DNA from: Amphiscolops sp. MND2022
Lineage: Eukaryota
Assembly: GCA_964187785.1 (NCBI GenBank)
Contig: OZ076409.1
Coordinates: 28,398,001-28,462,000, forward strand
Length of the DNA: 64,000 nt
Direction: 5' to 3'
Shown piece after piece: positions 4,208-64,000 of the stretch. Made by a program: the position numbers and the translations under genes. The notes under the pieces were generated by a model. It had not been told where the DNA came from. It worked only from the letters and a program-made list of their open reading frames with translations, and did no database searches. The first letter of the stretch is position 1, and every line of letters begins with the position of its first letter.

Positions 4208-4820
4208 TGTCGCAGGCTGCCGCATGCAATGGAAACTTGTATTCTATCTCTTACAACAACTACAACACTCTCCCTCGGACGATCCCGCTTGACTAAGGAA
4301 AATAGACGTGCCGTCCAAAAAGAACTGCAAACTTTGAATCTGGAACATTAGTGCTTTCAATTTGTTTTTTAAAACATGCTTGTAAATCGAATATAGTGTT
4401 TTTTTTCACGCAAATATTTGATACATTTGAAGATAATTGAACACCAAGGCGTACAGGTAAAGGAAACGTGTTCAAACGTTTCTTCGCCTGTCGCTGCGGG
4501 TAGGGCGTCCACTATGCATTTTATCCAATCAGCGGCGTTCACTTGATTAATGCTATACTTGATTGAATAAAAGGCCAAGTACGGCCATTCTACTTTGCTA
4601 GCGTACCACAGAGGGCGGCGGGACACTAAGTCTCAATTTGGACTAAAGGCGCTGTTTAGTAAATACCGCATTATAATTGAGCAGTAAGTTTTGATTATTT
4701 GATGATTTATTCAATATGTGATTTGTCCTGAGAATGTACAAATACCCAATAGTCATGTAAAATTTTATATGAAAAAGACAATCACATAAATCATGTAAAA
4801 ATCATTAAATTATACCCGCT
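4208..4820 (+). repeat. 5' LTR remnant of copy 1 (U3 part only; a deletion joins it to mid-gag)
   Basis: Starts like the 3' LTR at 16324. Gag homology resumes abruptly at about 4821 without PBS or gag leader. Confidence 0.7.
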
Positions 4821-5578
4821 TATGCAGACATTCAGGAACATAAACTCAAACAACCGTCAAACCTAAGAGGACGTGTTGGTCATATTCCGGCGAAAATATG
4901 TTAGGCCGGAATCACAAGCTACGGCAAAGCATAAATGGCATAGGCTCTTTTTCGATCCTATTACCATGGAAATGCCCGATTTCTTAGAAGAACTGAAGCA
5001 AGGCACCGAGAAAGCCTTTGGTGAAAACGCAAAAAGCATTATTGACAGCTTGTTGTATGCTAAACTGCCTCCAAAGTTGAAACAATCTGTCAACATGGCC
5101 TGTCTGCAGAATGGGACATATGAAGAGATCGTAGCTCATCTTGAAAGAGAGCAAGAACTCAACGCATTGAGGAATCAGATAACCTACCAATTTCCACAAT
5201 GGCCTCAGCGTCCTCAAGTAGCCGCATCTTGTTGTCCAATGGCCTTGAAACCAAAAAGGATGCCCAGTGCTCTTACTGTAAAGCAACAGGCTATTTCCGG
5301 AAAAACTGTCCAACGTTGAAGAAGAAAGAAATGGAGGAGAAACGTGGCAAAAGACCGCAGCGTCAAACATACCCACCATGTGAAACGTGTGAGAAAAAGA
5401 ACCACCCAGATGAAAGATGTTGGCAAGGCGCTGGTGCTCATCTTTTCCCGAAATGACCCAACTTGACGATAAAGCAAATGATGCCTCAAGTGATAAGGGA
5501 AAATCCAAGAAAGCAAATAATGCTGAAATGTCATCGTCAGGCTAATCAAACTCAAAAAAGCCTGATTCAAAAAGCTAA
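4821..5578 (+). pseudogene. gag: gag remnant, copy 1
   Basis: FRRKYVRPESQATAKHKWHRLFFDP...YAKLPPKLK, homologous to copy 2. Two zinc-knuckle-like motifs, CSYCKATGYFRKNC and CETCEKKNHPDERC. Frameshifted. Confidence 0.85.
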
Positions 5579-8500
5579 TTTTGCCACGACTCCAAACACA
5601 TAACTACATGTTGGTCCGACAGTATGTCATATCAGATACTCCGACAATCAAACTTCGCTAATTTCTCAAAGACACAAATGGCACCCCCTCAGTTGTCTGG
5701 CAGCAACAGAAGGAAAAAGCCTATATGAAGACTTATAAAATAGTACATAACGATTGCCCAGGCTCATACTATGAAATGGACTATACTAAAGACTGTGAAA
5801 CTCAATTTAGCCCTTTACAATTGGTCGAAGATTATAACTCTCAAAACATTGACCCCGAGAACGGAAAAAATTTGTATTGGGGTGACAAACTATATGATCA
5901 GGAAAATGTACAATTTAGTCATGACGACTATCCTTCAACAGACGACGAGGACGATCCAGCGATAAAGACAAAAAACTATCCGGGGCCCTCCTTGAACTTT
6001 GGCAGCCAAATTCAGAAGCGAATACCCCGGAGGAAATAGAAAAGTTTCATAGACAAGAAGTGCGCCAGGCTACAAACAGCCTCGTAGACGAGGCGGCCTT
6101 TTTGCACGTCCTCGTCACTAAGGAGGGAGAACCAGCAAACATTCCCTTTTCAACAAACCTTGGTCCTCAATTTAAACGACAGATGCTATACTTCCCGATG
6201 GACTTTAGGGAATTAACCTTAGACGGCTTAATAGACACTGGCCGCACATTTGCACGTAAATGCGTGGATGAAACACACGTGTTCACGTGTGCAACTTGCA
6301 TTGAATGCAGTTTATACGTACTATGCACGGTAGAGCTCAGTAATGATAACTAATTATTTATTGAATCATTGTTTACTTTGACTGGTTTATGATGCTGTGG
6401 TATGAATTAGAATTAAAATGAACACTGAGTTTTGAATGCATATAAACATGGTGTAAGTTAGTCAAAACTTTGACCACATTCCACTTTTCGGAAGTATAGG
6501 AGTCCCTCAATTTGCAAAAAGTGGAAGTTAGTCAACGTTTTGACTGACTTACGAAAAAGAGTATTTTTGGACTAACTTCCGCTTTTTTCTAATTACGTGT
6601 TTTGACTAACTTACACAATTTTCCATTACGCGCGTTGATTTTGCTAAACCGTTGAAGCATAGACCGTCTTGACTAACTTACGCTGAATGACCATTTTACC
6701 ATTTTACTCAGATTACGCTGCTTGACTAAAGGCAGCTTACCGGTACGTGTATCGTAATGGCGCCCACTCCAGTGCAATACCCGAAGCAGACCTCAGGAAA
6801 AAACGCCTACTAGCGCCTCAATTCATAATCAAAGAGGGACCTGCCCCATTATTTCAAATAACGGTCGCAAATGGAGATTTAGAATCACCAAAGAGTACCG
6901 TCGAATTAATGTTTCAAATGAGAGACATTGAGTTTCATGAACGTTCTATAGTAATGGAGAAAATTTCCAGCCCCATAATTGAATAATGTTCCTTCAATTG
7001 AACCACACAGTCTTAGACCTGCGCCAAGGTCTCCTCAACTTTCCTTATTTCTCAATGCAACTGACCACGACCACAAGTACTCAAATGTAATGGAACCCCT
7101 ACTCAGTCCTGAGGACGTGACGATTCCACCAAATGACCACGCGGTCATTACCATACAATCCCAAATTTATGCAGAGAACGCAGTCACAGGAATATTACAA
7201 CCTAGTGACGTTTTGCACGAAGAAGGCGACGTAACATTTTGCGCCGCATTTGTCACACTAAACGAAGGGACTATGGGCATACGCGTCAACTATTTCATTG
7301 ACCAACCTTACAAACTTGAAAAAGGATTGCATTTCGCAACTTTCTAAGTGATGACTCCTGAGCAAATGGAACACGTCAGACCATCAGACCCAGTGTCTAC
7401 CTGGCACTTACTAATCGAAAACCTAGAGGACGCTGTCTACTATATCAGCAGTCTTTTCAAAGCGAATCGGAACATTGACCAATACGAGCATTATTGGATC
7501 CTGACACATATACAAAAACAGCTACTTAGAGAAATGCGCAACTTGGAAGAAGCGGAAAAACTGAATCCGAAGGACGACGAAAAATCACGTCGCAAGCTTC
7601 TTAGCAATTTTGACTGGAAGGACTCAGTGCTATAACAGCATGGAATCATAGGAATTGAATCGCTATTAGTAGAAATCCATGACACCTTTGCACGTCATTG
7701 ATTCGACATTGGAATAAGAATTCACTGTCAAACTGACCGCTAGGTATGATTCACCAGCATACAGTCAAAGCTTGCATTACCCGATTAACTTAGTGGAGGA
7801 CATATTGGTTGAACTGGCGTCACTACATAAATATGGCATCAATTCAACTCTGCCATTTTTTGAATACGCGAGCCCTATATTTGCGCAGAAAAAACCCAAT
7901 GGGAAACTCAGACTACTAGTAGATCTGAAAAAGATCAATAATCTTATCTCAAGACGATTATATCAATAGTAATCATCCAGTCAGTACCCTGACTGACGCC
8001 GCGCAACATATACCCGGAAAGACACTTTTCTGTGAACTCGACTGTTCACAGGCCTACCATTGACTTCAAATGGCGGACCAAAGGTCTAAAACAATGCTAG
8101 CATTTAAACTTGCAAGCAGGACTTTTGCCTATAGAAGATTGACTCAGGGACTCAGCAGAGCCCTATCGGCCTTCTCCAGTTTCCTGAGGAAATACCTCAA
8201 ACGAGTTATAAAAGCATATCAATGCGCCCAATATGTCGATGACATTGACATTGCAGCTAACGACGTCGACCAACTTTTTAGAAACTTGAGGGCGACCTTT
8301 CAATGCATCAGAGAAACAGGATTAAAACTAACGATGCACAAGTGCAATTTCGTAGCAACTGAAATTGATTTCTTGGGGGAAGGACTATCACCCCAGAGAG
8401 TGCCAAGCCCCCCCCCCCAAAAAAAAATTACGAACTTCTTGGAAAAACAATCTTCCCGAAATCCAAGAAGGCCTAGCAACGTTATCTTGGTCTCCTAAAC

Positions 8501-11060
8501 TACTACAGAAAGTGTATTCCGAGATTATCAGAAACACTGGTGCCATTCTTCCAACTCCTTAAAAAGGATGATAAAGTCCTAGTGACCACGGAGCTGGTAC
8601 AACAATTCAAGGAAATCAACTAAGACCTTGACAGGTGTAGCCAGCTAGCCTTAAAGCAACCATTGCCAAACAAAGAAGTGGTCTTGATGTCAGACGCGAG
8701 TTTTACGGCAGCCGGTTATGCCATTCTGATTGAAAAGGACCCGAATCAAAAGTTCTTTCTGCCAAAAATTCCTATGCGCACATAGCCTACATATGAAAAA
8801 TCTTCACTACTTCGCGGCTGAAAAAGTCGATATATGCAAAGAACTTTTAGCCAAATACTACTCCTTCTAGGAGTTTGGACATTATTTCTGGGAGACACCT
8901 AAACAGAGAATTATCCTTACAGACAATAACTCGGTCACGTGGTTCTTCGAGACGAAAATAATACCATCGCCATTCTGGAAAGCGTGTGATTACGTGATAC
9001 AATTCAGTTTTATCTTAGCGCACATTCCAGGGAAGAATAACACAGCGGCGGACTATATGACCCGTATGGAAATGAATCCCAACGAGAAATTGATCCTAAA
9101 AATAGGGGATGTTGAAACCAGACCCATCAAGGTATATGTCCAATCGGCCGGCGTGTCCTTGAAAGCAACTATTCTTAACTGAAGAGGGCAATGAAACAGA
9201 AGAACAAAATTGGAAGCGCAAGAAATTGTCCAAAGAGGGACATAAAGTCGATGAGACCGTAATACAAATTGATGCAATATCTGAAAACAATGTGGATGAA
9301 ATCAATAATTTCACCCAGAAACTGTGACGAACAAATCAGATACTGTTGGAGCAAGCTAGAAATCCAATTTTGCTCCAATTTAAAGCAAAAATCCAGAAAG
9401 AAGAGTATTCCGAAGAAATTCTCCAACATGAAATTCGGTACAATCAATATTTGAATAATCTTGACTGCACAGTCCTCAAGGACAAAATAATAACACGGCA
9501 ATACTATGATGAAACTGGTCAAATCAAATATCATCAAATACTACTGCCCAAGCACTTGCTGAAAGAATTGCTACACGCCCTTCATGGCACGGCACACAAA
9601 CACCCTGCCATATCTGGGAAGTTTCAGGAAATTCGCCAAAAATACTACTACCCAGGGATAGAAAAGCATGTCAAAAGAAGGGTAGTAAGCTGCAAATTTT
9701 GTGCTAAAGACAAACATGTCCCAAAGAACGCAAAAACGCCTGAATTGCTTAATTTGCTTGAAAGGGACAATGGTCCAGAAAATGCCATGCAAATAGATCT
9801 GCTACCAAATATACCTATCAGTGGCGGATACCAGTCAGTGATGATGGCAATTGATGTTTTTTCAAAATACTTGTTCGCTGACACGCTAATTGAGGCACAA
9901 GCCGCAAATGTAACCAAAGTGTTAAATGATATCATGACAAGGCATTCATACTTGCCAAAAACTCTCCTCACGGACTAAGGGTCTGCCTTTACTTCAACGA
10001 TTGTAGCAGAAATAACTCAAATTTTGGGCAAAACACTTAAATGCGCTACTACTAAACCACCGCAGACAATTGGCAAGTTGGAGAGGACGCATGCCTCTCT
10101 CGAAACGAATTTGAAATTTGCCGCAGGGGAATTTCGACGCCAATGGCACAAATACCTGCCATTAGCTGTGCTCAATTATAATACCACACATCACTCTGGC
10201 ATTGGATATGAGCCAAGCAAGGTATTTCATGGACGCATCCCCCACAACGTCCTGGACCATAAGTTAGGGAACAATCTATTAAAAACCCTGAGCCAACGAC
10301 TGAATTTGCGAAAGAAGTACAACAAAGGACGCAAATCCTTATTGAACAAACAAAGAAAAAGATTGTGCAGTCGTACCTAAAATACAAGGACTATTATGAC
10401 CGGAAAGCCAAAGTTGCTCCGCTTCAAAAAAAAGGATTTTCGTTTCATTCTACAATCTAAAACCGACAGCCAAGCACCAAAAATTCCATTTAGAGACTGT
10501 TGATTGGCCCTTTTGTCATCCACAGAGTCCTGTCAAAACGACAATTATATTGTGCGTCGGCTAAGTACTAAAAAAACGCAAATATTACACCGAATGAGAC
10601 TCAAAAAATTGGGCCTAACACGCCCTTACAGGCCAAATATTCCAGTAAAAATAACAATCTGACGATGAGATAGTAATACCGCAAGACGACTTGTAGACTA
10701 TTTCATGGTAAGTGGATTTTGATTACGAAAAAATTGACACAAGAAAAGACAATTGGCCGGATACGGCCTTATGCCTACCAAACGACGCCGCGAGCGGCGA
10801 AGTTGACGATTACGTCACCGAAGATGAACGCAGCAGCGAGAGGAATGAAAGTGATGTCACTGAAAATGAAATACGCACGAGACCGGCCAGCAGCCGAGAT
10901 GTGACGTCTCCGTTGATCGAACTGCCTGATACGGCTCAAGATGAAAATGACGTCACCAACGAATTAAAAGATGAGGAACTACCTTCAAAAGGAGGCGCAC
11001 ATATGTACATATCTTCGACCTAATTCTACCCCCAACTTGACTGATGAGAACATATACTAG
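5579..11060 (+). pseudogene. pol: pol remnant, copy 1 (protease, dUTPase-like segment, RT, RNase H, integrase)
   Basis: LIDTG|AHSS (split by an insertion); YASPIFAQKKPNGKLRLLVDL; CAQYVDD; LMSDAS; HGTAHKHP...CKFC; QIDL, LLTD, LERTH. Many stops and frameshifts. Confidence 0.92.
6243..6757. mobile_element. ~515-bp non-autonomous insertion in the protease active-site codons
   Basis: Splits GAC ACT GGC|GCC (DTG|A). TGGC is duplicated at 6239-6242 and 6758-6761. Internal GACTAACTTAC/GTAAGTTAGTC repeats occur in both orientations. TIRs unclear. Confidence 0.65.
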
Positions 11061-11140
11061 TCAGATATGTAATTTAAGGCCACATTAGTCCTTTTGACTG
11101 ACTGACTGACGTATCTTTTTATTGGGACTATTCTGACTAT

Positions 11141-14100
11141 TTATAAATAAAGAATTACTTCAACAAAGGACAAATTGTATAATATTTGACAGAGAAAAGC
11201 CAATGATGAAAGATGAAGGTACAAGTTTAAAGAACAATTGTACAAAATGTACATTTGGGACTTAGAAGTAGTCTGCTCGGACTCTTCCGGGACTTTATCC
11301 TTCTTTGCAGACTCTGTTGACCCAAAAGCAGTTTTCCGTTTCCCTTTCCCGGGGGACCACTTGTGTCGACTGCTGGTAGAGGGTGAACTTGAACCGGAGG
11401 CGAAACGACTCGAGGATGCTGCTTTAGGCTTCTGTGTCATGGATTTATGCTTTATGCAAAGGGTTCTGTAGAAATTGGCCTTGCCAAATACATCAACATG
11501 GGTCCAGGGATCACCTGCTACGTTACCAGAATTGAACTGTTCTTCTAGCTCACGAAATCTAGACAATGAACTCTCGTTAGTACAAACTGGAATGGAGTTT
11601 GGAACTCTAACCAAATAGAACTGTGCTGATAATATGACGTCTCCCTGCCTATGTGAATCAACATCTTGGAACTGAATGGAGGAAGCAAAGGGTTATCTTC
11701 AGTAAGGCACATGCAGCTTATTCGGAAAAGTCGGTAGAGATGGAGACGATTTCTGAGTTCAGGCATTGCCGACAATAGATCCACAATGTCGGTAAATCCT
11801 GCTGGGGAGTTTTTCAGGGAGGGATACATCTGGCGAGAGTGACCCACGAATTCCAGATACTAATCACGGCAGTCGTTTTTAGAAGATCCACCCAACCAAC
11901 CTCGGAGGCTGAAAATCTGGTATATTGTCGCGAAGCAAAATGTAGCTTGTTCTAAAGGTAGGATCAAGAGAATGTGGAGATCGAAACTGGCTATCACCCT
12001 GACGATGTCGGCATTTAAACTAATGTGGCCGAGCAAAAATACCATATAGCCCCGTGCCTTTGCAACGAACTTTTGTTTTGTGTCCTCAACCAATTCTGAA
12101 AAACTGGGAAATGAGCTTTCCCTGTCACTGTTGTCTCTCTTCACTTTGGCTGCCTCATCAATGTCCAATTTCAACCTCAATATGGTGAGCAAATCCCTCG
12201 AAGATAATTGACTAAGCAATCCATCGAACAGTCTAGATTTCCCACTAGGCTCTTCTCAAAACAAACGTTGTCTAAATAATGAAATGTTAACAATTAGAGA
12301 ATTCAACCTCTAGGTCCTTTGACGAAGTGGAACTCCTAGGAGAACCCTACTCAACCATGGAAATTGAAAGGAGATTTACTTACAATCAATAGTACACGAT
12401 CCTTCCAAAGAATTCCAATTTGATTGGGAAGAAGTCATCACTGATGATCTGCTACTCCTGGTTCTGAGGCTGAAAGGAAATAAGATTTGTCAATGGTTTT
12501 CAGGTCATGAGCATATAACGAACCATCTGGTAACAATACTGGTCAATGAAAATTCAATAACTTTGTTTTTAACCCCTTGCATCTCGTACCCATGTGCAAT
12601 CTTGGTGATGTGATCCCAGAAGGGCTTCCAATTAGTAATTATCTTGGAACAGATAATCGGTATGGTTCGAATCCGCAAGTCACAACTTGATATGACCTGG
12701 AAGCAACAATGACGTGGAACTGGTGTATAAGACACAACTAACTTCTAATCGTTGACACCAATACTAACTTTGGCTAGTTCAGGGGTATTACCGATTCAAG
12801 GCTCATCAAGAATATTGGCTAGATAGGCCACCAGGTACTTGAGTTGGATGTAGAAGTCTATCCGCCCAAACACGATTCCCTCACGTTTTAGCATACGCTT
12901 GTGTAGTGACAAGACTTTTTAGCCGAAAGGGTATGCAGTTTCCTTCTTCACCGAGCAGACTGCTCAACCGTCCGGAGGACTTCGTAATTGCACCCTGACA
13001 TACAGACAACCTGAGGTGCTGTCGAGAGGAAAGACAAGATTCTGGCTATCACAAGCAGCTGGTTTCGGACACGAATGGAGGCCAAGCTACAACGACAAAG
13101 TTGGAATTAGACAAGATCGTCTGATTTCCAGTAGCTCAAAGATGCGATGCCATGGCTCCCTTGTGGCTCAATTTCAAGAGAAATCAACACTGTCTCTTTC
13201 AGTGATTGGGCTACGTCTTCCATACCACGTAAGGAGACATGATGGAAGATAGCCTGAAACAGTTTAGATCCCTTAAAATCATGCAAAATCGAATGGTACA
13301 CAAAGGCTCACAGTCACCCTCACTTTAGCCTGGACTAGGAGCAATGGCCCGACAGGCCTCGGTCCAACTCTAGCTTCCCTTCTTTCGATGTCTATTTCTG
13401 TGGAAGGGGCATTGGTGTCCGAAACGTCACCTTGGTTAAAAGAAGATGCTCCGATTTCTTCATCGGACGCTAAGGCTCCGCTGGTGTACCCGTCAATGGT
13501 GTATCCTTCGCTCTCGGTTTCCCATTCAGAGTTTGTGGGGACGCCTCTAGTTGGATTTTCTCCCCTTATGAGAGTCTTTCTAAAATGGCCAGGTGTTTGA
13601 CCTCTTCCCCCATACACTGCCTGAAGAACAAGCGAACGCGTGCAAAGACAACTTGACAGTTTCGTCCGAAATGGTTTTGAGGACGGCGTGGATATGCGGT
13701 TCGCTGTATTCAATCGTGGAAGGTCCTCTGGGAAGCACGGTTGGGTAGACTTGAAAAAATGTTTCCGGAGAACGGTTCGGCCATTGGCAGAAAGTTGCTC
13801 TGGAAATTTGGTTTCTTTGGTTTGGGGGATGACATGGAAGCCCTTAACCCCTTTGTTGACAGCCTCACGCTCTTCTTCTGGAGCTGAAAAGAGGTCAGAA
13901 TCAGAATTCGCTATGCTGGAGGTTGGCCTGTTTGGCAAGCCATCGGCACAGGGGCTGCTATACAGGTCTTCTACCTCACTTGCATCGGTCTCAAAATAGT
14001 TCTTCTCTCGTTCGTGTGACCAATCAACAGGGCCCATATCAAACTGACTGGAGGTCCCCTATAACTCAGAACCGATTTATTGGGTATCAGTCCGACCAAA

Positions 14101-14434
14101 CTCAAGGATTTTCGACACTGATAAACTGTAAGGGCCAGGCTCAGTCCTGTCTTGTTGAGAAGCCTGATTAGTTGCGGGCACGAAAGTAATGTCATTCTAG
14201 GGACTAAGGCCGCCAAAGAACGCAACGTTTGGTCTGCATAAGCCGAGAGCCTCTCCTCAGCATTACCACTGCTAGAGGAAGGATTGGACGCAGGACGAAA
14301 AGCCGTGATCTGTTCTCTAGACTCAACTGGGTCCTCTTGTGAAGTTTCAGAAACTTCATCCATCGGTTGTGAATTTTCAGTCGGATGCTCTTCAGATGAC
14401 GTTTCTGAAGGAAAAGAAGAAAATTAGCGGACAA
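11141..14434 (-). pseudogene. Antisense, intron-containing cargo gene of copy 1 (hAT-transposase-like; BED region apparently deleted)
   Basis: ORF fragments 13279-14363, 13107-13253, 12505-12696, 11860-12219, 11545-11847 and 11141-11614 are colinear and homologous to 45864-46918 (-) and 58200-61000 (+). GT-AG introns at 13254-13311 and 12697-12768. Confidence 0.75.
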
Positions 14435-15587
14435 ACTTCCTTATTTTGAGATCCCATGTGCCGCTGTTAAAACTTCTGGAAATGAGATATATTAAAATCG
14501 AAACACGTGAAATATGTGTTTATTGGGCAGGAAGTACATGAACAGAAAGTGAGCCGTGATCAAGCCTATTTTTGTTTACATGAAATTGGGAAATCATCCA
14601 CCAGAAAAAGTTCGGGATAGCAACCAAGCAGATTGTGGAAAAACTGAGAAGTTGCAGAGCAGCGAAGTGTGAGGGCACGTACAGCTGGGGGAAAGTGCTT
14701 GACGCAAGGCAAGATGAATTGCCGGGACTGGAAGCCGACGGTGCACAGGAAACCGAAGGTACCCTTAGTATTGATGATGACTGCACGAGGTGTCCCAAAT
14801 AGTAAAGATGAAAGGAAAGATAGTTAAATATGGTTCAAAGACTAACTATCGACTAAATACAAGTGATGATTAAATACTGGATAATAAGAAAGAATTGAAA
14901 ATGGACAATTTGAATGACGAAATGGCAATGTGACAATATATCAAAATTGGATTTCGTGTCTTTACAGTTTGGTGTCAAATTTACAGTTATTTAAAATTCA
15001 CGCCGAAATGTTGATAGAGTTTGCCAGTAATATCTACATTACCCTATTTTATCTCAAAAACTTTGTTATTTCATACAATTATTTCATTACTTTTGTTATT
15101 ATTTCATTGTTTCACAGTCATATTATTTTGTTCCGTATGTGGAGTTTAACCCTTGGATGGCCATTCCGGAAAAGAAGAAACTTTGCTTCGATCTTATTGG
15201 ACGTTTCACGAGAAGCGAGACCGGGTGGCCTTCAACCATATCTTCACCTATTTGAGGATTTCAAGTAGCTATTGAGTGTTAATAAACACTCAGCGAAGTC
15301 CTCGATTCCGCCTTCAAGAAGCAAATACGATATTGAATGTCAACAATGACACGGCCGGCCGCCCATAAAGGGACTACGAGGATGTTGCTGAATATTTTAC
15401 CAAAAAGGGAAAGGAAAACCCGGAAAAAAGAAAAACGAAATTGGGTGAGTCTCCCGCGAATCTGAGCGAGGTAAACTGGCATTCACTCATTTTCGTTCCT
15501 ACCGTTCAGCTCACTACTTTTAACCTGAAATTCAAAATCTGCCCCGTACTTTCATTTCAAAATGTTGCGTAAAAAATACGAAGACGC

Positions 15588-16410
15588 ATGTCTGACTTGT
15601 CTGGATTTTTTCCAATGGACTTCGTGGGAGCCGCCCAATCTGAAAGAGAACCAGCCATCATTGACTTGTCAAGTGACTATGACGATCATATGGACTGTGT
15701 CAGCACGGACTGTGTCAGACTGTGTGTGATTTTTTCGTCAGACGAAGAATCAGAGAACATTGAGCTGATGGCCGGATGTGTAGAAAGACAACTAGCCGAT
15801 CCAATTCACATACCCACCACTGGGACAACAATGGCTCAAAAGAGGAGCGGAACACCTAGGCCAAACCAACCACCGTTCCCCACTTTTGACCGAAGGTATT
15901 TTAATCTCGGACGCGGAAACAGTTTATTAGCATTTGATAATAGGGTAAGGAATAACCACCCTTTTTACAATTGTCGCAACCTAATACCCCGAATGGATTC
16001 CCCGCTGTCTCCTTCTGTCGAAGATAGAAGACCAAACTACGGGTCAAGTGCGCCTAGTTGCTCCTACTCTACTGATACTGTCTCAGTGGAGTCAATCTCA
16101 AACTATTTCAATGGGATGGCTGTGTCAGAAACTCCGGCGCTGGTGAACTGTTCAGACTGTGTGGTCTGCGGAAAGTCAATCCACCAAATACAGTCGGAGG
16201 CGGTCGATGACTACTTAAACAAAACTGTGAATCCAGGCTAAACGTTGGCAGAACAGGAAGCAAGGAGAAGAGCCTTCTTGGATGGAATGTCCGCAGGGAC
16301 GTTGCTTCTCATGCCAGGTGGAGTGTCGCAGGCTGCCGCATGCGATGGAAAATGGTATTCTATCTCTTACAACAACTACAACACTCTCCTTGGGACAATC
16401 CTGCTTGGTG
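15588..16410 (+). pseudogene. ORF-X (unknown protein; acidic N-terminus, DCVVCG motif) running through the PPT into the 3' LTR
   Basis: ORFs 15588-16241 and 16245-16454 are separated by one in-frame stop. Homologous to 53083-53868 (-): DCxVC.G...QI...A...Y...RRR..L.GM..GT...P.GV.QA. Confidence 0.75.
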
Positions 16411-31289: not shown

Positions 31290-31402
31290 TCCATCAAGTT
31301 CTAATAGCATCTTTTTTGGCTTTGTTTCTGCTTTCTACCACAGCGACCTTGCCATGTTTCATAGCTAATGTCAGTGAAAAAGCTGTTTGCAATGGATTTA
31401 TT

Positions 31403-51278: not shown

Positions 51279-51598
51279 TTTGGTGTGAACTAGTACCAAT
51301 TGCAGACCTCTTTACTCGCGATCCGTCACTTGCTCTAATTCTTACTCATCAATCACATCCTTTTACCCTTAACACTCGTCCAACAGATTGTCAACATCAA
51401 TCAAACCACTTTAGATCCAAACACGCATCTCAGATAATTTCCATTTGCTCCTTGAAAAAAGCCCTGTAAAATAGCTTAGCAGAAATTCCTGTTTCAAGAG
51501 ACAGCCGAAGTAAACCAGGTTCATTTTCAGAAAGTCGTTTGGAAACTACCTTTGCATCCACCTCCAATCAGCAAGAGACTAATGTTTCTGACTTCCCA

Positions 51599-53154: not shown

Positions 53155-53868
53155 CTCCACTAGGGATGAAAAGTACTGTCCCCTGATCCATTCCGGCAAG
53201 AGAAGAAATTCGTCGTCTTTGTCGTTCGTCATATCTTTCTTCTTGACAGGTTGTTGATTCCACATATCCCAACATAGCAGTCTCTTTTATCTGTTCATAG
53301 GTCCCACAGCACACAATACAGTCTCCATATTGCGCTTGATTAGGCTGTCCACATTGTGACGATACTCTCACACTAATTCCTTGTATATGCGCATTGCGTT
53401 GGAGATGTTGATGTAGTCGGTCTGGTGTAGTGTATTCAAAGGCACTGTAAGTCGGCCCCCGTTCGCTAGGAGGAGGAGATAACGACGTATCAACTTCCCA
53501 CAGTATTTAATTGGAGGACTGTTGCTTTGAGTCGCTGTACTCGGACCAGCTAACATGTCACGTGGGTTCGACTGATTGTCCACTAGCTGCATCATGCTGT
53601 CAAAGTCATTCCATGGAAAATTGGGGTACTCATCGTTGACACACTGTGATGTGTCTACCGTCATTGCTCGTCCTGCCACTAGGCCTTGGGGTTGTATGGG
53701 CACATGTCGATAGCATGCAGTTAACTATATATTGCTGTCATCTGAGGCGCTACTCAAAACTTCCACCGATTGTACGTCTACGTCCATCTCTTCATCAGAA
53801 GAGTAATAGCTGGGGCTCACCGCAGGATCAGAGAGATCGTCCAAATGGAAATGCAGATTTATTTCCAT
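53083..53868 (-). pseudogene. ORF-X of copy 3 (first duplicate)
   Basis: MEINLHF...YSSDEEMDVDVQSVEVLSSASDD...GDCIVCCGTYEQIKETAMLGY...RRR...GMDQGTVLFIPSGVLQA. Frameshifted. Confidence 0.75.
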
Positions 53869-56491
53869 TTTGAATCGATTTAAGAAGAGTTTTCTAGCAA
53901 TCTTCAAGAATCGATTGAGCAACTGGATTTCGCAGTTAGGTTTAGTAGAATACTCCCATCTCGCCCACCGGACCTTGGGTCTTTCCTCGTTTCGCGGGAA
54001 ATTTTAGGCGGGGAAACATTGTCAGCAGTTTACCAGTAATTTTCCGTAAAATTTCCATTTAGGTAATATGAGCCACTTCACACATATGTTGATGAGTCTT
54101 AACCTAAGTTAACAGACCGTCAAGTGCCTTTTGATCTATCTATTTATCAATCAAAGAGGTGTTAATCACCTCTGTATGTGCTTATCAGCACTAACTATCG
54201 GTAAATAAAAACACTATCAAAGACCTTCGGTCCGCATGGCTACATCAACTGAATTGACCAATGAGGTTCCTTTGATGAATGAAAGATGGAAGTCTGATGA
54301 AAATGAATGAAAATGACAATTTCATCTAAATTAATTCTAATCTACGAAGCAAACTAATCTGTAAAATGAAGTAAAAGCATGAATTTCACTGGTAGTTTCC
54401 ATCCATGGTAAAGGGGATTATGATTAAGTAATGATACACAGGGTACAAGAAATAAGTAGTAAATAATTATATATGAAAGACCTAATTATAAGGCCACGAC
54501 GTCCATTTATAATTTGAATAATTAACCGTTTTCAGGACTTTTTTCTAGAGTGATCCATCTTTTAAAGTCTGGCAAACTCGGAAAGTGAAAGTAATAATAG
54601 TACAATTCAAATGTATGTCACTGTCTCTGTATCACAGGATTCTACAATTTCAATTCTTTATATTTTGAGTTGCATATTATTTCCCATTGAGACTCATTAT
54701 TTTGGACGATAATTTCAGACTTCAAGCCACGACGGCCACAGAAGTGTCTAAGTAGTCAGATGATAATTCTGAAAAGGAGCTTGTCATACCCAGCAGTCTA
54801 TCACCCAGATTCGCATCCCCAGTCATTAGGTTTGGACAGAAGAATTCTGCTTTTCCGTCATGGAAATAGCATCAAGTTGGTTCTTTGAATGAGGCTCGAC
54901 TAAACTTGATCAAGGTTTTGGCCTGACTATTTTACTTCCGCCATCGTGAAATGTTTTCACATTGTGTTAAATAAACTGAACTTAACTTCCTGAAGATTTT
55001 AAAAGCGGTAAGAATGACTCTTGCAGGAAGTGAACCGCGCGAAACTATTCCTTTCAATTTAGGAAAAAAGGTCAAACGGCCAACCAGACCAATCATTAAC
55101 TGGTGATAGCACTACTAGTGACGACCTCGAAGTTACTAATCCTAAAATGGCCGAAAAACTGTCAGCCTGAATTGTTTCTGGTGATACAAGTGGAGCTCTC
55201 CGAAGTGCTGACCACTTCTCAAGCATCGGATACTCCTACGGAAACATGAGCATGATAGAATTACCGATTTTCCGCATGCTGCTGCCGAGACTAGTTGAAG
55301 TCGTGACGACCAGAAGTCCGACCCCGTTGTTTTCGATGCTGGTAGTCCAGGTGGTCAGACCTTAGCTGCCCTCAAGGCCGAAGCTATAAAAGACCAGAAC
55401 AAACGCTCTCGTAATAAGCGTGGGTGTTTCATCCAGCCAACTACAGCTCAAGGGACGAGAAGGAAGGTGACCGGTTCATGCAAGATCATGAAGGAGGCAT
55501 ACTTTAAAGGTATGGAGTGGACCCGAACCTTTGTATCTGGACCTGTCGACCCTCGTTAGAACCAGTACAAATTTTATTGTCAGAATTGTAAGGCCAACAT
55601 TTCAATATACGGGAAGGGAGCTAGAGAGATTCTGCGTCACCACTCCACCGAAAAGCACCTCCGAAAGGACCAAAGGTGGAGCTATGGGTACCTGTACAAG
55701 GTTAACCCCATCACGAAAACCAAGATCCATCAAGTCAGGGGAAACGATGGCAAGATATTGACTCCCTATCAGTAAGAGTTGGAACTTCCAAACTTTATAC
55801 ATGCCTCCTATTTATAGTTGGGAGGAGATGAGAACGCCGAAATTGCGTGTCATGTTACTAAATATAAATATACCTGTGACTAAAAATAGCATCCGGTAGG
55901 GTTACATCACCCTGACGTCATCACATCGAATAAAGGGGACTTTACGGTTAAGCCGACAAGGTGGGAAAACAGTTACAACACTTTATATGTATACCCAACA
56001 CTAATCTACAACACTACATGTGCACTAAAGATGAAATTTCATGCTAGCACAGTAAATAACCGTAGCGGACTTTAAGTTCGTGAAACTACAATCATATATA
56101 CTACCGGCGGCAGCCGCGTACTAATTCCACCGTGGCAGACATTCCGTCCACGGAGCTACATACATATACTGCGTTTTGATTGGTCAATAATATTAGGACA
56201 GCGAGTACAATTAGCTAGAAGATGCGTTCAATTGAAAACGTTTCCTCTTCCGCATCTAATTGCATTTAACTAATCATTCAATTTTACATTCGAATTATCG
56301 AATCACATCAAATTCCTAGCAGAGAAACAGGAACCTGACTATTTTCTAATCAGTTAAAAACAGCCCGATAATCTAAAATTAAAATTTGTATCGTGGCCGT
56401 ATGGACCATACGTCTTTTACGGTGAAAAAATAAAATAAGAACAATAACGATAAATTTACCTGTGGCACAATGTACTATTAGTCTTTCGTCG

Positions 56492-58199: not shown

Positions 58200-61000
58200 A
58201 GCAGTCTATCACCCAGATTCGCAACCCCAGTCATTAAGTTTGGACAGAAGAATTCTGCTTTTCCGTCATGGAAATAGCATCAAGTTGGTTCTTTGAATGA
58301 GGCTCGACTAAACTTGATCAAGGTTTAGGCCTGACTATTTTACTTCCGCCATCGTGAAATGTTTTCACATTGTGTTAAATAAACTGAACTTAACTTCCTG
58401 AAGATTTTAAAAGCGGTAAGAATGAGTCTTGCAGGAAGTGAACTGCGCGAAACTATTCCTTTCAATTTAGGAAAAAGGTCAAACGGCCAACCAGACCAAT
58501 CGTTAACTGGTGATAGCACTACTAGTGACGACCTTGAAGTTACTAATTCTAAAATGGCCGAAAAACTGTCAGCCTGAATTGTTTCTGGTGATACAAGTGG
58601 AGCTCTCCGAAGTGCTGACCACTTCTCTAGCATCGGATACTCCTACGGAAACATGAGCATGATAGAATTACCGATCTTCTGCATGCTGCTGCCGAGACTA
58701 GTTGAAGTCGTGACGACCAGAAGTCCGACCCCGTTGTTTTCGATGCTGGTAGTCCAGGTGGTCAGACCTTAGCTCCCTCAAGGCCGAAGCTATAAAAGAC
58801 CAGAACAAACGCTCTCGTAATAAGCGTGGCTGTTTCATCCAGCCAACTACAGCTCAAGGGACGAGAAGGAAGGTGACCGGTTCGTGCAAGATCATGAAGG
58901 AGGCATACTTTAAAGGTATGGAGTGGACCCGAACCTTTGTATCTGGACCTGTCGACCCTCGTTAGAACCAGTACAAATTTTATTGTCAGAATTGTAAGGC
59001 CAAAATTTCAATATACGGGAAGGGAGCTAGAGAGATTCTGCGTCACCACTCCACCGAAAAGCACCTCCGAAAGGACCAAAGGTGGAGCTATGAGTACCTG
59101 TACAAGGTTAACCCCATCACGAAAACCAAGATCCATCAAGTCAGGGGAAACGATGGCAAGATATTGACTCCCTATCAGCTAGAGTTGGAACTTCCAAACT
59201 TTATACATGTCGAGTTAGTCGAGATTGGACAAAAGCTTCCTTACTACGACGAGTATATGTTTGTATGGACTACATGGCGTCTTCTTCAGAAAACAGAGCT
59301 CGTGTTCAAATGTCAGTCCTCGGCCAGTTCCTACCGTTTTTTAGTGATTTTGAAGTGCTGAAAACTTTCTGGAACGACGTAGGAGTCATTGTTAACCATC
59401 AGGCTCTCTTCACGGACTTCAACTGGAGGAGAGAACGATTGACTGTAAGTATTTCCTCAAAACTATTCCGAATTATACAGCTCATAGGGATTCGGTAACA
59501 ACATTCGAAAGGTTGCAGAGTAACTTCTTTTTCTTAGGTGTTGTTCCATCACATATTCCTGGAGCTCATTAATGATTTCGTTGCATACTCTACATTGCCA
59601 ATGGAGAGTATGCAATCGAGTTTGCAAGTGACGGTGCCTTCTTGCGTGCATTTGTACGAATTTGGCGTGAAGACGAACCTTGTCGGGTATTTTGAAGCGG
59701 ACTGGGAGGCTGCAGGGCCAGACTGATGCCGAAATTTGTTTGATTTTTTACAGCAAGGGCGCAATTTCTACCAAACCCTAATTAATCAGTTGCACGGGCG
59801 GTAGTGTGCGGACCATTCAGTTGATGGACCTGAGCCCATACAGTTCCTTCAGTGTGCAGATTCCTCCCTGAATTTAAGAGTTGTCTCTGCCACAGTTGAT
59901 GCACCGAAAGAGCCAGAGCGTCTTTGGACGGGTGGACTTCTTTTCCACTCTACGTTACCTAGTCGTTTCTCTGGGAGGCACTCTGGAACTAGGCTGAGTC
60001 CTGCTTTCTCCGGAATTGTCTAAGGTACGTTGCGTCTGGTGTTTATCATCTTCCTTCCTCTAAGTTACATGATTCCAATGGCATTTAACCCTCTTGGCTT
60101 AATAATGAGCGGTGACTCCTAGCACGTCCAATTTCAAATTCCAGGCCATCCGAACATACCAATTGGACATCTGTGGACTGCCCTTTTTATGTCTTGAACT
60201 TCTTGACAATTGGCCCAAAGTACACTCCTACCTTAGCAAGAAGAGATGCAAGGAGTTCGTAAGCAGGTAACCTTCTTGTTTTTCTTGTAGCTCCAGGTAC
60301 CTCAAGTCCATATAGGCAAAAATTTCCAATTGTTCTAGCCACAAAACCTGGAGTGGTATGAAGTTTACGACAGTCTCTTCCCCCGTCGACTCGAACTGTT
60401 TTATCGCCTCGTACAGGATTGTAAGTGGAGTTCTTATTGCATCGGCTGTTATTATGTTGTTCAGAATTCACTCTAGCTTCCTTTTTTAGACACTAACAGT
60501 TTTACTCTAAATCTGAAGTCGCAACGACACAGAGGCTTTCATGTCTACAAAGAGTTGTGTCAGTTCTTATTCAAACTTGGTCGAAGGTGTATTCGTCCCA
60601 GTAGTATTCCGGCTGACAATGACAACCAGGGGATATTCCAATTCTCCTTCCCTGACGCCAAAGCCTTGGTTGTTGACGACTTTATCACCCGCTCCAAACT
60701 TGCAGCTCGACTTGATGTCGGATGCAAGCAGGAAGCCGAAAAGGAACGTGATGAAGGGGAGAAGTGGGTATGCGGCCTATCTCCTGGGAGCAACCCAAAA
60801 GCTCAACCGGTTCACACCGATATCGTGAGAGGACTCGGGTCATTTGATTTAGAGATACTTCTGGTGGACCCTATGGAACAAGCCTCTTACTGTTTTAAAT
60901 AGCTTTTGTCCAGTTTTAGGACTCCGTGGGGGGTTAGTAATATCTCCTTCTAGTGACAATTGGTGAAAATTGTCGTCGCAGGCGGTAGCCTGCGACCTCC
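58200..61000 (+). pseudogene. Antisense cargo gene of copy 3 with BED-type zinc finger and two GT-AG introns (5' part duplicated at ~54800-55802)
   Basis: FYCQNCKAKISIYGKGAREILRHHSTEKH at 58978-59064. Introns 59445-59537 and 60025-60144. DIVRGLGSFDLEILLVDPMEQASYCF at ~60820-60898. Boundaries approximate. Confidence 0.78.
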
Positions 61001-62405
61001 CATAATGGCAATAACATCAGATTGGGTTTTCTAATTGTTAATGTCAAGCTTGATCAGGACTCCATTTTGACCAGTTAACTTCCTCCATCGTGAAACAAAA
61101 ACACGTCGTGTGAATATTCTGATTTTACACCTGCTTCCGGTGTCTTAAGCAGTACGACGGTTAGTTTTGCAGGAACTGAACCGCGCTTGTTCATATTTTT
61201 CTGTTCAGATAACGAACAAGATGACCAACCATCTCAAGTAACAGAAGAGGCGATGGAAGAAGTACCAATTACCATCGTCACTCCTACTTCTGGAGAACAC
61301 CTAGCAGGACTCTCGGTCGAGTTAGCCGCATCACAGGAGGTGAACACTGCCAAAGGGAGCGCTCACATTTTCAGCAGCAGTGGGTCGGAAGAAAGCTTCA
61401 CTGCTTACTTCACAAGGAAAATAGAATTTTTGGGTAGCAATCAAGAAATTTCGTCTTCGGAAGGCCCGGTCTTCTTTCCCAGAGCAGTTCGGAAGTGCCA
61501 GTTCTAGTGAAGGCATTAACATATTCACTTCTGTTAATGCCGACAGTTTTACTGTCACCACTTTAAGGGCCAGTTCCTACAATTGTTTTCCTAGATTCTC
61601 CGGTACTACCTTTGCAATCCACTCTTAGAGACCGTAAGAAGATGGCGCGAGTAAGAACTGAACTTCCTTAGACCGATGCTGTTCTTCAGCTTCGCGTTGC
61701 AAGTGGCTTCTCTCCCTATTGGGCTCTTCCGATAAATGATAGCCATTTTTCATCGACCGACAAGTCAACGTTACACCTATTCCTTGTTGAAGAAGCGAGG
61801 CTCCCCAAAGTCTACTTCAGCCGAAGCCTTGATTTCCCCAGTTAGGTTAGGTATAGCATGATGTATACTGACGACGAGTCTATCGACGTCACCCTAGAGG
61901 ACCTGCCCAATCAAGATGCTGGCCCTACACCCCTTTCTATTAGCAGTAGAGAGATCATCAGTCGTTTTTCAAAGAGATTACTCACATCAATCACCCTGAA
62001 GGGCATGCAATTTTTGCCTTTACGCAGGCACAGATTGGACAAATCCTGAGAATGGTCGCAGATGAATGTAGAGCCAGCCAACTTAACGTAGATAGTTCTG
62101 AAGCTCCGGGACATTCCGACAGATCTAGCAATGCGCTCATTCTTTCAACACCGCCTGACACTGTAACTGAGGTTGGTTCTGAGAGATCAGCTTTTACTAG
62201 GTGTATCGAGACTAGTCGTGGACTCAGAAGCGATGATGATTTACCGGCTTTCTCAGACCTTGGACGGGGCCGAGTCATAGCAATTACTGTGAGTGAATTT
62301 CTCGCCATATCGAAACTCAGCAGCAAATTGGAGGTTGCCTGCAAACTCAGAGTCGAAAGGGACCGACGAGAGAAGAAAATTGATCAAATTTGATCAGAAA
62401 ATTGA

Positions 62406-63310
62406 CCCGGGTTTCCCGACCAGGCCGATCATAATCTGACCATATTATGGCACCATAGAAATCATACAAATTTCCTTACTATGATCTTGCTATGATCGGC
62501 CTGGAATCATATATGGTCCAGAGTATGATCGGCCTGGAATCATATATGATCCAGAGTATGATCGGCCTGAAATCATATATGGTTCAGAGTAGGGTCAGCC
62601 TGGAATCATAATTTTTTTAAATATATATTTTTTTAATTTTCAAACAAAAATTTTCAAATATTGAGAACAGCCAGCTTTATAGGCTGAGGGCAATGGAGCC
62701 ACATTCGACCTTTGGTATCTGCGAACGATACATTGCAGGTCAGAACTCCGTTAAGCTCTAAGCGGAGTTAAAAACAAACTATAGTAACTCAATTTGTTCT
62801 CAGCCACTCATTTGTTAATAACTAACTCTTTTGTTATAGCAGTACCCACTTTGCAGTATGATTTTCGATTATTTCGAGAAAAATTACCAATAATTCAGCA
62901 AAAGATGCCCAAAATTGATGATTGCTGCCTTGTTTTCAATTTGGTGATTTTATTGGACATTTGGTTGAGGAATATCTTGTAATTTCATCAGTGTATGCGT
63001 TAATTGACTACATTATCCTAATTTGCTTTTTATGGCTCCAGGCTGACCATACTCTGGGCCATAAAGGTTTATGATTCCAGGCTGATCATAGACTGAACCA
63101 TATATGGCCCAGAATATGGTCAGGCTGGAACCATAAACTTTGCTTTTTTATGGTTCCAGGCTGATCATAGACTGGACCACATATGTCCAGAGTATGGTCA
63201 GCCTGGAACCATAAACCATTATGGTCCAGAGTATGATCAGCCTGGAATCATACTGTGAGTATGATGGCAGAGTATGATTGACCCGTTTTTGTATGGGAGG
63301 GAAACCCGGG
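62406..63310. mobile_element. CMC/EnSpm-type MITE
   Basis: TIRs CCCGGGTTTCCC...GGGAAACCCGGG. Perfect 2-bp TSD GA. 33-bp subterminal repeats (ATGATCGGCCTGGAATCATATATGGTCCAGAGT) in both orientations. Confidence 0.92.
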
Positions 63311-64000
63311 GAGGCTTTCAGCCTCGAAACGGTCACTGGACGGAACAATGATGAGGTTGGGCGATTAGCCCTAGTTACGTCACCCACTTTTTGAACGAGA
63401 CTCAATCACGTAGGCCTCACCAGCAGCAATATCAAGGTATCGGGGGCATTCGACATCAACGTCATCCTCGAGGGACCGATTGACAGTCAGTTGTGTTAGC
63501 CTGCTTTTCTCCCATTACCGCCTCCGAGGACATTTTCACATTGAACAAGAAATATCTTGTATTGAAGAGTACCAGTCAGTCGCTTGTTGATTAACTGAGG
63601 CAAAAGTATTTAGAAATGTTACAGCCTACCTTGTTCGTGGTACATTTCCGCATGGAACAACGAGCCCTTCGCAAGGAGCATATCTTATTTAGGCTGTTTA
63701 AACTGGCTTGTCGTTGCCTTAAAGAGCTTTTCCAGGTGTTACCGCTGGTCTTTTTCGGTTCCGTGAAGACTGAGAATCCCACCAGCAGATTAATTGACTC
63801 GATACAGCCATATTTCAAGAATGTTCCTCACAGTATAGAAGCTATGACAACTGACCAATCTGTATCCCGCTCTCTGCAGCTCGAGCCTGTTTTTTGGCAA
63901 TCGCGGGTTTTCCGACCCTTACAGTCCCTGGTCCTTTCTGTGGCCTCCGACGGACGAGGTCCTCCTAAATCTTTGGGAGTACCTGTCACAGTCCGCGCCC

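Follow-up and report, generated by a model that had tools for sequence, protein, structure and literature searches.

Does Amphiscolops sp. MND2022 harbour an LTR retrotransposon family to which two additional genes, one of them antisense and divided into several exons, truly belong, and what might these genes do? The question is raised by a 64,000-nucleotide stretch of DNA (the window), for which the initial annotation proposed that three diverged copies share one layout: LTR, gag-pol, a tail-to-tail antisense multi-exon gene and a head-to-head sense gene, ORF-X, running into the 3' LTR.

The window copies and the class of the element

The common layout was confirmed, with corrections to each copy (Table 1). 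Copy 1 (4208-17263, plus strand), described as showing all parts, does represent all four genes, but it is incomplete. Its 5' LTR remnant (92% identical to the 3' LTR over 85 bp) joins gag residue ~313 directly at 4786; therefore, the remainder of the LTR has been deleted together with the PBS and the gag head. Also gone is ~0.7 kb of antisense exon 1 including the zinc finger, leaving profile positions 184-401 of 659. Its pol contains a ~0.5-kb insertion (6242-6758), its 3' LTR includes the gag head (16694-17158), part of its spacer (14854-15292) is 72% identical to young relatives, and its flanks, GAAGG/AAAGG, are a target duplication matching at 4/5 positions. As proposed, the other copies show part of the layout. 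Copy 2 (37291 to ~47070, plus strand) comprises LTR, PBS, gag, pol and, of the antisense gene, the last exon alone; antisense exons 1-2 and ORF-X are absent, a partial duplicate of exon 5 lies at 48424-48831, and a 1.77-kb tandem duplication is found downstream. Copy 3 (51599 to beyond 64000, minus strand) has its 3' LTR, ORF-X and antisense exons 1, 2 and 5 in the window and its gag-pol beyond it (G000:C1:28463717-28468014); a tandem duplication of ~3.4 kb (52391-55803/55800-59209) is the source of the second ORF-X. For the extra genes, the claim that alignment is mainly at the protein level is correct; gag-pol of copies 1 and 2 can also be aligned as DNA (66% over 2.9 kb).

Table 1. Features of the three copies, in window coordinates
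Feature	Position	Strand	Remarks
Copy 1 5' LTR remnant	4208..4785	+	starts TGTCG; holds last ~28 codons of ORF-X
Copy 1 gag, C-terminal part, frameshifted	4786..5453	+	tblastn 75%/53% to young gag
Copy 1 pol (PR-RT-RH-IN), many frameshifts/stops	5584..11004	+	
Copy 1 antisense exon 5 (helical domain), broken	11141..12255	-	profile E 1e-51, 2e-25
Copy 1 antisense exon 2 (predicted RNase H-like core), broken	12760..13253	-	
Copy 1 antisense exon 1 remnant	13279..14423	-	zinc-finger part deleted
Copy 1 spacer of head-to-head genes (putative bidirectional promoter)	14424..15572	.	
Copy 1 ORF-X, one internal stop	15573..16410	+	ends inside 3' LTR; profile E 1e-112
Copy 1 3' LTR, internally deleted	16324..17263	+	ends TTACA
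Copy 2 5' LTR	37291..39226	+	gag head from ~38641
Copy 2 PBS (tRNA-Leu-like)	39227-39238	+	1 mismatch
Copy 2 gag, broken	38641..40327	+	
Copy 2 pol, broken	40323..45504	+	RVT_1 and rve Pfam matches
Copy 2 antisense exon 5 region only, frameshifted	45864..47071	-	element truncated here
Copy 3 3' LTR with gag head	51599..53154	-	
Copy 3 ORF-X, broken	53087..53925	-	duplicate at 56496-57334
Copy 3 antisense exon 1, C-terminal part	58765..59459	+	includes BED-like C2H2 zinc finger; second copy at 55242-55823
Copy 3 antisense exon 2, broken	59600..60054	+	
Copy 3 antisense exon 5, pieces 60456-60920, 63580-63940	60456..63940	+	split by inserted DNA

The element is a Ty3/Gypsy LTR retrotransposon, with direct LTRs ending in TG...CA, 5-bp duplications, gag followed by pol in PR-RT-RH-IN order (Pfam, one young copy) and a tRNA-complementary PBS (TGGTGACAGGAG) after the 5' LTR. 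The Pfam matches in the young copy are, in order, zf-CCHC (weak), Asp protease (227-315), RVT_1 (626-791), RNaseH (860-981), Integrase_H2C2 (1179-1234) and rve (1255-1350). The complementary tRNA 3' pattern has 964 genomic matches versus 0 for the control, and ARAGORN called a tRNA-Leu(CAG) at 1/5 loci. Ahead of the 3' LTR, where a polypurine tract would be expected, two lineages have a short (A)GGGG(G)AG and the copy-2 lineage has a pyrimidine-rich sequence. In the PDB, the RT is matched best by foamy-virus-type Pol (E 6e-32), followed by 8r0s and Ty3 (E 1e-24 to 1e-23), and identity to other Gypsy lineages of the same genome is 22-32%. An env-bearing errantivirus or retrovirus was considered and rejected: there is no sense env with a transmembrane anchor or fusion domain, hydrophobic 19-aa stretches (>1.8) occur in 0/34 ORF-X, 0/32 exon 1, 0/41 exon 2 and 1/35 exon 5 sequences, and no fusion-protein Pfam match was obtained, in contrast to other Gypsy lineages of the genome.

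Linkage, splice sites and selection of the accessory genes

The layout is that of a genome-wide family. The young relatives are 15.5-16.4 kb long, have LTR pairs of 98.5-100% identity and share the order LTR, gag, pol, antisense five-exon gene, ~1.1-kb spacer and sense ORF-X, which ends inside the 3' LTR; 5-bp target duplications flank 17/17 paired elements, 3/20 loci having no LTR pair in the stretch taken. In samples skewed, like those used for selection, to young, top-scoring copies, the antisense gene is present in 40/40 and ORF-X in 39/40 copies chosen by integrase alone (two lineages, within 10 kb), so that full-length copies lacking the extra genes are not the rule and the proposed accessory-gene-rich lineage is supported. 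In the one copy without ORF-X, exon 5 is interrupted by 2 kb of inserted DNA, which has probably displaced ORF-X beyond the stretch taken. Conversely, gag-pol of the same family adjoins 20/20 copies chosen by an accessory gene. None of 17 other Gypsy loci of the genome has these accessory genes; they occur at an 18th, but only where a fragment of pol from the present family adjoins. A first look across the genome gave 5,622 candidates for exon 5, 5,925 for the zinc finger and 3,677 for ORF-X, and the best 150 of each, which were scored, are all significant, which excludes chance. The family is a high-copy, recently active one.

The antisense gene is predicted to encode a protein of ~1,280 aa with a long acidic low-complexity N-terminus, a BED-like finger, a predicted RNase H-like core and a helical C-terminus. 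Its four introns, read by eye, have the same positions and phases (0,0,0,1) in three lineages, and the GT-AG boundaries are conserved: the exon-1 donor GT lies at an identical codon in 27/27 copies, exon 3 has 135 nt in 32/32 and exon 4 has 82 nt with a good score in 30/32, whereas intron lengths vary. Splice sites and exon lengths are thus kept across lineages despite accessory proteins of 25-48% identity. In five close pairs, divergence is 0.030/0.022/0.130 at codon positions 1/2/3 versus 0.087 in introns. For pairs limited to dS of 0.05-0.8 and not independent of each other, dN/dS is 0.07-0.10 for exon 5, 0.10-0.13 for exon 2, 0.16 for exon 1, 0.11-0.19 for ORF-X and 0.03-0.05 for the integrase. 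Both accessory genes are under purifying selection, and conservation at the protein level, as claimed initially, is borne out by values far from ~1 in unsaturated pairs. That the extra region is a functionless passenger, or was inserted repeatedly and independently, might be suggested by the decay of the window copies, but it is ruled out as extremely improbable by the fixed position, the conserved splice sites, dN/dS of 0.07-0.19 and the finding, in 3/3 copies tested, that the region is not bounded by shared terminal inverted repeats. The introns likely persist because they are antisense to the genomic RNA: as the gag-pol strand, this would leave them unspliced in the template, and they would survive reverse transcription.

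Origin of the antisense gene and exchange of cassettes

A model of the natural exon1-intron-exon2 frame, of moderate confidence (mean pLDDT 62, pTM 0.37), predicts a BED-like zinc finger followed by an RNase H-like core (residues 240-334). In a Foldseek comparison with 350,542 chains, the four top-ranking ones all belong to Hermes hAT transposase (E 2.6e-3 to 9.8e-3, prob 0.85-0.98), and the modelled order of finger, helical region and RNase H-like beta1-3/alpha/beta4 would be that of Hermes (PDB 4d1q/8sjd/8edg) and domesticated ZBED/ZMYM/THAP0-type proteins. VIA gave RNase H-like folds at Z 6-7.6, equalled on Z by actin/kinase-like folds; Hermes 8edg is the only listed match spanning finger to core (Z 7.0, 165 aligned, rmsd 17). 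It should be noted that RNase H-like folds are common and that the Hermes matches have Foldseek E values >0.001 and large rmsd. In contrast to hATs, a conserved DDE triad and CxxH motif are not found: with a register set by eye and by a non-significant alignment, in which the third acid is not locatable, the position of the first catalytic Asp holds E/A/Q/T, and strand 4 ends in S/T-G-C without an acid. An invariant Glu two residues ahead of the Asp position (28/28) might allow some residual chemistry. In the finger, C35 and C38 are invariant (20/20) and two His are conserved by eye; zf-BED scores only E 0.6, other C2H2 models E 1e-4. The all-helical exon 5, comprising the C-terminal half, has no clear structural match to its model, and neither a hAT helical insertion domain nor the PF05699 dimerisation domain was matched. 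Comparison with profiles of host Ac-type hATs and 48 public ZMYM/THAP0-type hATs was not significant (probability <=1.2%), Pfam hAT families and PDB sequences gave no match, and no inverted repeat shared by the 3/3 copies bounds the gene.

A hAT origin is nevertheless likely, though not proven. Capture of an intron-bearing host gene (domesticated ZBED/ZNF862-type), or mere convergence of finger and RNase H fold, would accommodate the four introns, the ~470 additional N-terminal residues, several host hATs that are single long ORFs, and the missing TIRs and sequence link to hATs; it appears rather unlikely, however, as there are no stand-alone copies among 20 accessory-picked, top-scoring loci, and nothing but unnamed assembly ORFs turned up among the 10 clusters looked up and 50 relatives of greater length.

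ORF-X (~290 aa) has an acidic, Ser/Pro-rich N-half and an invariant CxxC. The spacer contains ACTTCCGGAA ~20 nt upstream of the antisense ATG in 16/16 cases and AAAATGGC in 14/16, which we take to be ETS- and YY1-like motifs; it is probably an internal bidirectional promoter from which both accessory genes would be transcribed. The antisense stop is followed by TATTTAT (30/32) and TGTACAT (27/32), presumably ARE- and Pumilio-like motifs.

The trees of antisense gene, ORF-X and integrase are incongruent, and therefore the accessory genes have been swapped between copies as cassettes. With groups taken from prior clustering, tests reject a common tree for ORF-X and the antisense gene (p-AU 3e-5 to 4e-83); congruence with the integrase is rejected less strongly. 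Template switching during reverse transcription could swap entire cassettes. The 22 copies contain 15 antisense types at a cut-off of 88%; many old alleles seem to persist, as would be expected from conflict with host silencing or among subfamilies. ORF-X type matches the adjacent U3 type in only 7/12 pairs, which weighs against the favoured function given below and for which physical linkage alone suffices as an explanation.

Possible functions

The chances are about even that the accessory genes, the antisense one being a likely dead hAT-transposase derivative, act in the nucleus to keep element copies transcribed: the antisense protein would bind element DNA or chromatin as an anti-silencing or activating factor, and ORF-X might, as a guess from its composition, trans-activate the LTR. 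The fuller scenario, a hAT transposase domesticated as an antisense regulatory gene and a second gene sharing a bidirectional promoter, with dozens of ancient alleles freely exchanged in a family-wide arms race with host silencing, is tentatively advanced. Alternatively, the antisense protein might serve integration as an inactivated transposase, a scaffold bound to the ends of the element or to target chromatin, by which the pre-integration complex would be guided or stabilised. This would suit the predicted transposase-like finger and RNase H core and the lack of a chromodomain among the Pfam matches of pol, and such a role has been proposed for plant antisense ORFs in the available text of PMC7264820; it is improbable, however, as the integrase is complete, has a dN/dS of 0.03-0.05 and is freely paired with deeply diverged antisense alleles, which makes a tight co-evolved interface unlikely. 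Self-restraint, by copy-number limitation or allele-specific interference among subfamilies, via protein or antisense RNA, is likewise doubtful. The 15 antisense types would fit it, an antisense transcript would be complementary to genomic RNA, and there are precedents in dead transposases that act as repressors and in the self-control of Ty1 by p22 (PMC6719617, in part). Yet the abundance of the family is very high, many of its LTR pairs are nearly identical, and selection at the protein level argues against RNA-only restraint.

Quite improbable, too, is an action on RNA, in poly(A) read-through behind pol and/or export of unspliced genomic RNA. On the gag-pol strand, AATAAA occurs 68 times in the pol-antisense gap versus 19.3 expected (30/32 copies), and none is fixed in 10 LTRs; but 54/73 hexamers have the sequence AATAAATA, which reads TATTTATT on the antisense strand, a U-rich one, and motifs of an antisense 3'UTR would explain this just as well. 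ORF-X would be the best candidate for Rev/CERV-like export, CERV being reportedly an accessory gene of C. elegans Cer1 and a precedent for an RNA-acting protein, but the BED-like finger of the antisense protein suggests DNA binding.

Related elements and significance

Antisense extra ORFs had been regarded as mainly a plant feature, which holds for Retand, Grande and RIRE2, where an antisense coding region lies family-wide between pol and 3' LTR, as here (PMC11963269; PMC7264820), but fungal Boty/BcGypsy1 brtn (Botrytis, Sclerotinia) occupies the same position in Gypsy (PMC7264820; bioRxiv 10.1101/2021.04.13.439636). In the parts of these sources available, a Transposase_28 (TRP28) domain, for which DNA binding is predicted, occurs in 97% of Retand clusters (PMC11963269), and Grande gene23 is nuclear with its own promoter (PMC7264820; PMC11963269). 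The present family, in an apparently non-plant setting, differs from the plant elements in its fold call, with no match to PF04195 (TRP28) at E<=1, in its head-to-head ORF-X and in its four conserved introns, the word "intron" having 0 occurrences in the available Retand main text (PMC11963269). From brtn, as described, it differs by its predicted zinc-finger/RNase H-fold product of ~1,280 aa, by the presence of a second gene and by the exchange of cassettes. Accessory genes are likewise found in the animal elements Oikopleura Tor (env with internal promoter; PMC4402516), bdelloid ORF3s (modular; PMC5408684) and planarian Burro (PMC6431247), with env, esterase, exonuclease and polyprotein domains; the available portions describe no antisense multi-exon transposase-like gene. 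VANDAL VANC anti-silencing proteins, family-specific TE-encoded factors, would be a functional analogy, but their hosts are plant DNA transposons (PMC6719617, in part). Antisense extra genes are thus known, but the combination described here was not found in the literature searched.

According to the available text of PMC7264820 and PMC11963269, it is unknown where the antisense accessory genes of LTR retrotransposons come from and what they do. In the present family there are thousands of candidate copies, many of them young, in which the four genes are cleanly laid out. The predicted structure hints that a retrotransposon captured a DNA transposase, and alleles swapped in nature allow the effects of the modules to be told apart, so that the question of anti-silencing versus self-control becomes testable. 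The family also shows a route by which a retroelement can keep spliceosomal introns, and cautions that antisense genes of this kind are liable to be annotated as host multi-exon genes. If the fuller scenario is true, a complex-retrovirus-like regulatory genome would have evolved independently in an env-less Gypsy lineage.

Anatomy of the family and its copies in the window

A search of the host's own 1.07-Gb genome gave, at first look, 5,622 candidates for exon 5 of the antisense gene, 5,925 for its finger and 3,677 for ORF-X, figures that are not copy numbers; of each, the best 150 were scored, and most were stop-free. Of twenty elements, chosen via an accessory gene and fetched as separate overlapping stretches, 17 have paired LTRs of about 1.5-1.9 kb with TG...CA termini, identical at 98.5-100%, and all 17 have 5-bp target duplications; in the other three, further insertions interrupt or truncate the element. 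Members with the least disruption have a total length of 15.5-16.4 kb, and their gag of about 560-600 codons overlaps a pol frame of about 1,700-1,740 codons (PR-RT-RH-IN). The family is Ty3/Gypsy by the features tested; in a PDB search, its RT/RNase H matched foamy-virus-type Pol (E 6e-32) better than Ty3 (E 8e-24).

The LTRs are unusual in their anatomy: all ten examined contain the ORF-X stop at base 84-90, a TATA box about 130-180 nt upstream of the gag ATG, and the first 181-214 gag codons within U5. Therefore, the PBS is translated as part of gag, the gag head is present in every 3' or solo LTR, and a strong-stop region of about 0.7 kb is implied. The PBS is complementary to a host tRNA 3' end, with one of five loci called Leu(CAG). 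A fixed AATAAA is absent from the LTR. Elements of the copy-2 lineage show no polypurine tract next to the 3' LTR, where the ORF-X coding sequence is pyrimidine-rich, and despite this their LTR pairs are still 98.5-99.9% identical; other lineages of the family have a short GGGGAG tract there.

When proteins from young relatives were mapped to the window, the initial annotation's view of three diverged copies with one layout, and of copies 2 and 3 as each partial, was borne out; all three copies proved to be decayed. Copy 2 ends after the last antisense exon, and copy 3 has its 3' LTR, ORF-X and antisense exons in the window and its gag-pol just past the edge. Copy 1, which had been said to show all parts, does retain pieces of the four genes, but most of its 5' LTR is gone, as are the PBS, the gag head and the stretch of antisense exon 1 that codes for the zinc finger.

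Coordinates of features in the window and in other stretches of the same genome (L-numbers: stretches fetched around family members or other Gypsy loci; G000: the genome itself, in which the window is C1:28398001-28462000)
Stretch	Position (strand)	Feature
Window	4208-17263 (+)	Copy 1
Window	16694-17158	Gag head inside LTR, copy 1
Window	37291-~47070 (+)	Copy 2
Window	38641-39226	Gag head inside LTR, copy 2
Window	51599->64000 (-)	Copy 3
Window	62491-63278	MITE- or foldback-like insert of nested inverted repeats and short tandem repeats inside copy 3 exon 5
Window	25003-25708 (-), 26607-26714 (-), 33255-34355, 47310-48053	More pieces of LTR/gag head plus the tail of an ORF-X, probably left by this family as solo LTRs or remnants
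Window	23224-24393	DNA-transposase-like fragments
Window	23224-23604 (-)	BED-like finger, judged by eye
L013	1432-3277	Example of gag codons within LTR
L013	5898-7400	RT/RNase H
L014	609-850	Example of AATAAA-rich gap, pol stop to antisense stop; the motifs could form an internal poly(A) site or belong to the antisense 3'UTR
L014	~6180	Example of KIAKK-coding block
L014	~6870-6896	Example of absent polypurine tract
L028	5182-8175 (-)	998-aa ORF, no Pfam hit above cut-off, inserted in one copy at the expected site of antisense exon 1 start and ORF-X
L144	4805-7660	Fusion glycoprotein, other Gypsy lineage
L141	4112-5554 (element positions)	Fusion glycoprotein, other Gypsy lineage
G000:C8	35587099 onward	tRNA-Leu-like 3' ends repeated in tandem as a very large array, ~235-296 bp spacing among the matches listed (964 genome-wide)

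Retention, structure and selection of the accessory genes

Linkage was read over 10 kb downstream of the integrase in two samples of 20 copies, one spread across the ranking for the copy-2 integrase and one taking every seventh rank for that of the copy-3 lineage, both biased to young copies. Antisense exons 5, 2 and 1 were present in 40/40 copies and ORF-X in 39/40, with constant order and strand, so that in these young-biased samples it is not the case that most copies lack the extra genes. Eighteen loci from other Gypsy lineages, whose pol is 22-32% identical, were compared: 17 lack both accessory genes, and in the 18th they occur only alongside a piece of the family's pol. Shared TIRs bounding the accessory region were looked for in three copies and none was found, which speaks against an extra region with termini of its own.

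Identity between lineages of the family is 64-74% for pol and 25-48% for the accessory frames. For pairs at dS 0.05-0.8, a range that excludes the saturated majority (511 of 595 pairs for exon 5), dN/dS of the antisense exons is 0.07-0.16, that of ORF-X 0.11-0.19 and that of integrase 0.03-0.05. These values are far from a ratio of about 1 and uphold the proposal that the extra genes were conserved as protein across lineages; the exon-2 ratio of 0.92 in three pairs at dS<0.05 is expected from post-insertion decay.

The antisense gene is a real gene of the spliced type, its transcription and splicing being predicted from sequence. Protein conservation of exon 1 stops at the very codon where the GT donor starts (27/27), exon 3 measures 135 nt in 32/32 copies, and 30 of 32 exon-4 calls scored well at 82 nt, whereas the introns vary in length and diverge about three times as much as codon positions 1-2. 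The exon 3 and 4 calls were scored with two reference peptides, and in two copies the exon-3 donor was wrongly placed too late or exon 4 was miscalled. Intron phases, read by eye, are 0,0,0,1 in three lineages. The palindrome ACTTCCGGAA lies about 20 nt 5' of the antisense ATG in 16/16 copies, and U-rich motifs are conserved behind the stop. Introns opposite the genomic-RNA strand escape removal before reverse transcription, which probably explains the persistence of those in the antisense gene.

Identity of the two proteins and known relatives

Pfam and PDB sequence searches gave no match naming the antisense gene or ORF-X, and PDB searches with exon-2, exon-5 and ORF-X profiles gave no hits. 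A degenerate hAT transposase had been proposed by eye ahead of folding. The AlphaFold2 model of the natural frame covering finger and exon 2 (pLDDT 62, core 75-90) has an RNase H-like core, and Hermes occupies Foldseek ranks 1-4 (E 2.6e-3 to 9.8e-3); in VIA, Hermes alone among the matches listed aligned finger to core, other RNase H-like folds being equal on Z. Profile comparisons with two hAT sets were not significant, a DUF4371 search of the genome gave no match and nor did its control, and the helical exon-5 model found nothing above background in PDB, VIA-wide and BFVD fold searches. The model makes hAT ancestry of the antisense gene fairly likely, and, given that ancestry, DDE activity has very probably been lost; neither the catalytic acids nor CxxH is conserved, and the gene does not qualify as a hAT element. 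A word-seeded search found no long exon-5 relative at E<=0.001 among 6,923 candidates; a full HMMER scan gave 900 clusters at that threshold. Identities among the best 150 of these were <30% in 1, 30-40% in 21, 40-50% in 40, 50-60% in 35, 60-70% in 21 and >70% in 32, and the ten clusters looked up were unnamed (one member tagged NCBI/Logan, the others ENA).

One half of ORF-X is acidic and Ser/Pro-rich; its C-terminal block is conserved and includes an invariant CxxC. A transmembrane segment was looked for and not found, and the identity of ORF-X as env was rejected on this ground. A block coding KIAKK, conserved 5' of the first Met in 18/19 copies examined, may be either a non-ATG start or a conserved DNA motif.

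Other Gypsy lineages in this genome also carry additional frames: a Monjiviricetes-type fusion glycoprotein in L144 and L141 (E 2e-27 and 7e-17), lineages that also have further long unnamed sense ORFs, a DnaJ-like hit in L134 (E 5e-5), and long unnamed ORFs downstream of pol in L138, L139, L145 and L148. A family-wide antisense gene is common to this family and Retand, Grande and Boty (PMC7264820, PMC11963269); the family is not one of the TRP28 elements (Retand type). The literature covered turned up no account of this layout; an entry may exist in Repbase, GyDB, TE-library supplements or subscription journals, outside that scope.

Cassette exchange and a possible role in transcription

Fifteen antisense types occur among 22 copies. 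Exons 2 and 5 are co-inherited in 9/9 same-type pairs, which agree in ORF-X type in 3/9 and in U3 type in 2/9. The elements L014 and L020 are close in integrase (dS 0.14) and ORF-X (dS 0.07), yet their antisense genes differ at dN of about 0.4 with dS saturated; L012 and L014 present the opposite pattern. AU tests on 19 copies of one lineage, with three divergent rows excluded, rejected the clades of each module on the data of the other. The simplest cause would be template switching between co-packaged RNAs.

What the accessory genes do for the element can be read in several ways. They might help integration, or exert self-restraint on the element, two readings that we consider equally unlikely. 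A role in RNA read-through or export, which appears slightly less probable still, could draw on a 3.5-fold enrichment of AATAAA behind pol (gag-pol strand, 30/32 copies), but these motifs read equally as 3'UTR motifs of the antisense gene. In the accessory region, AATAAA had been predicted to be depleted on the gag-pol strand, which the counts refuted (134 vs 82).

To the most likely reading, that both genes encode nuclear trans-regulators, we assign about an even chance. It fits their obligatory retention, their faster evolution than pol and their long-lived exchanged alleles, and VANC proteins in plants fit the same pattern (PMC6719617). Under such a regime, the two genes would be transcribed from the spacer between them, and the antisense protein and ORF-X would act in the nucleus in trans, so that transcription of the family might be sustained despite host silencing.
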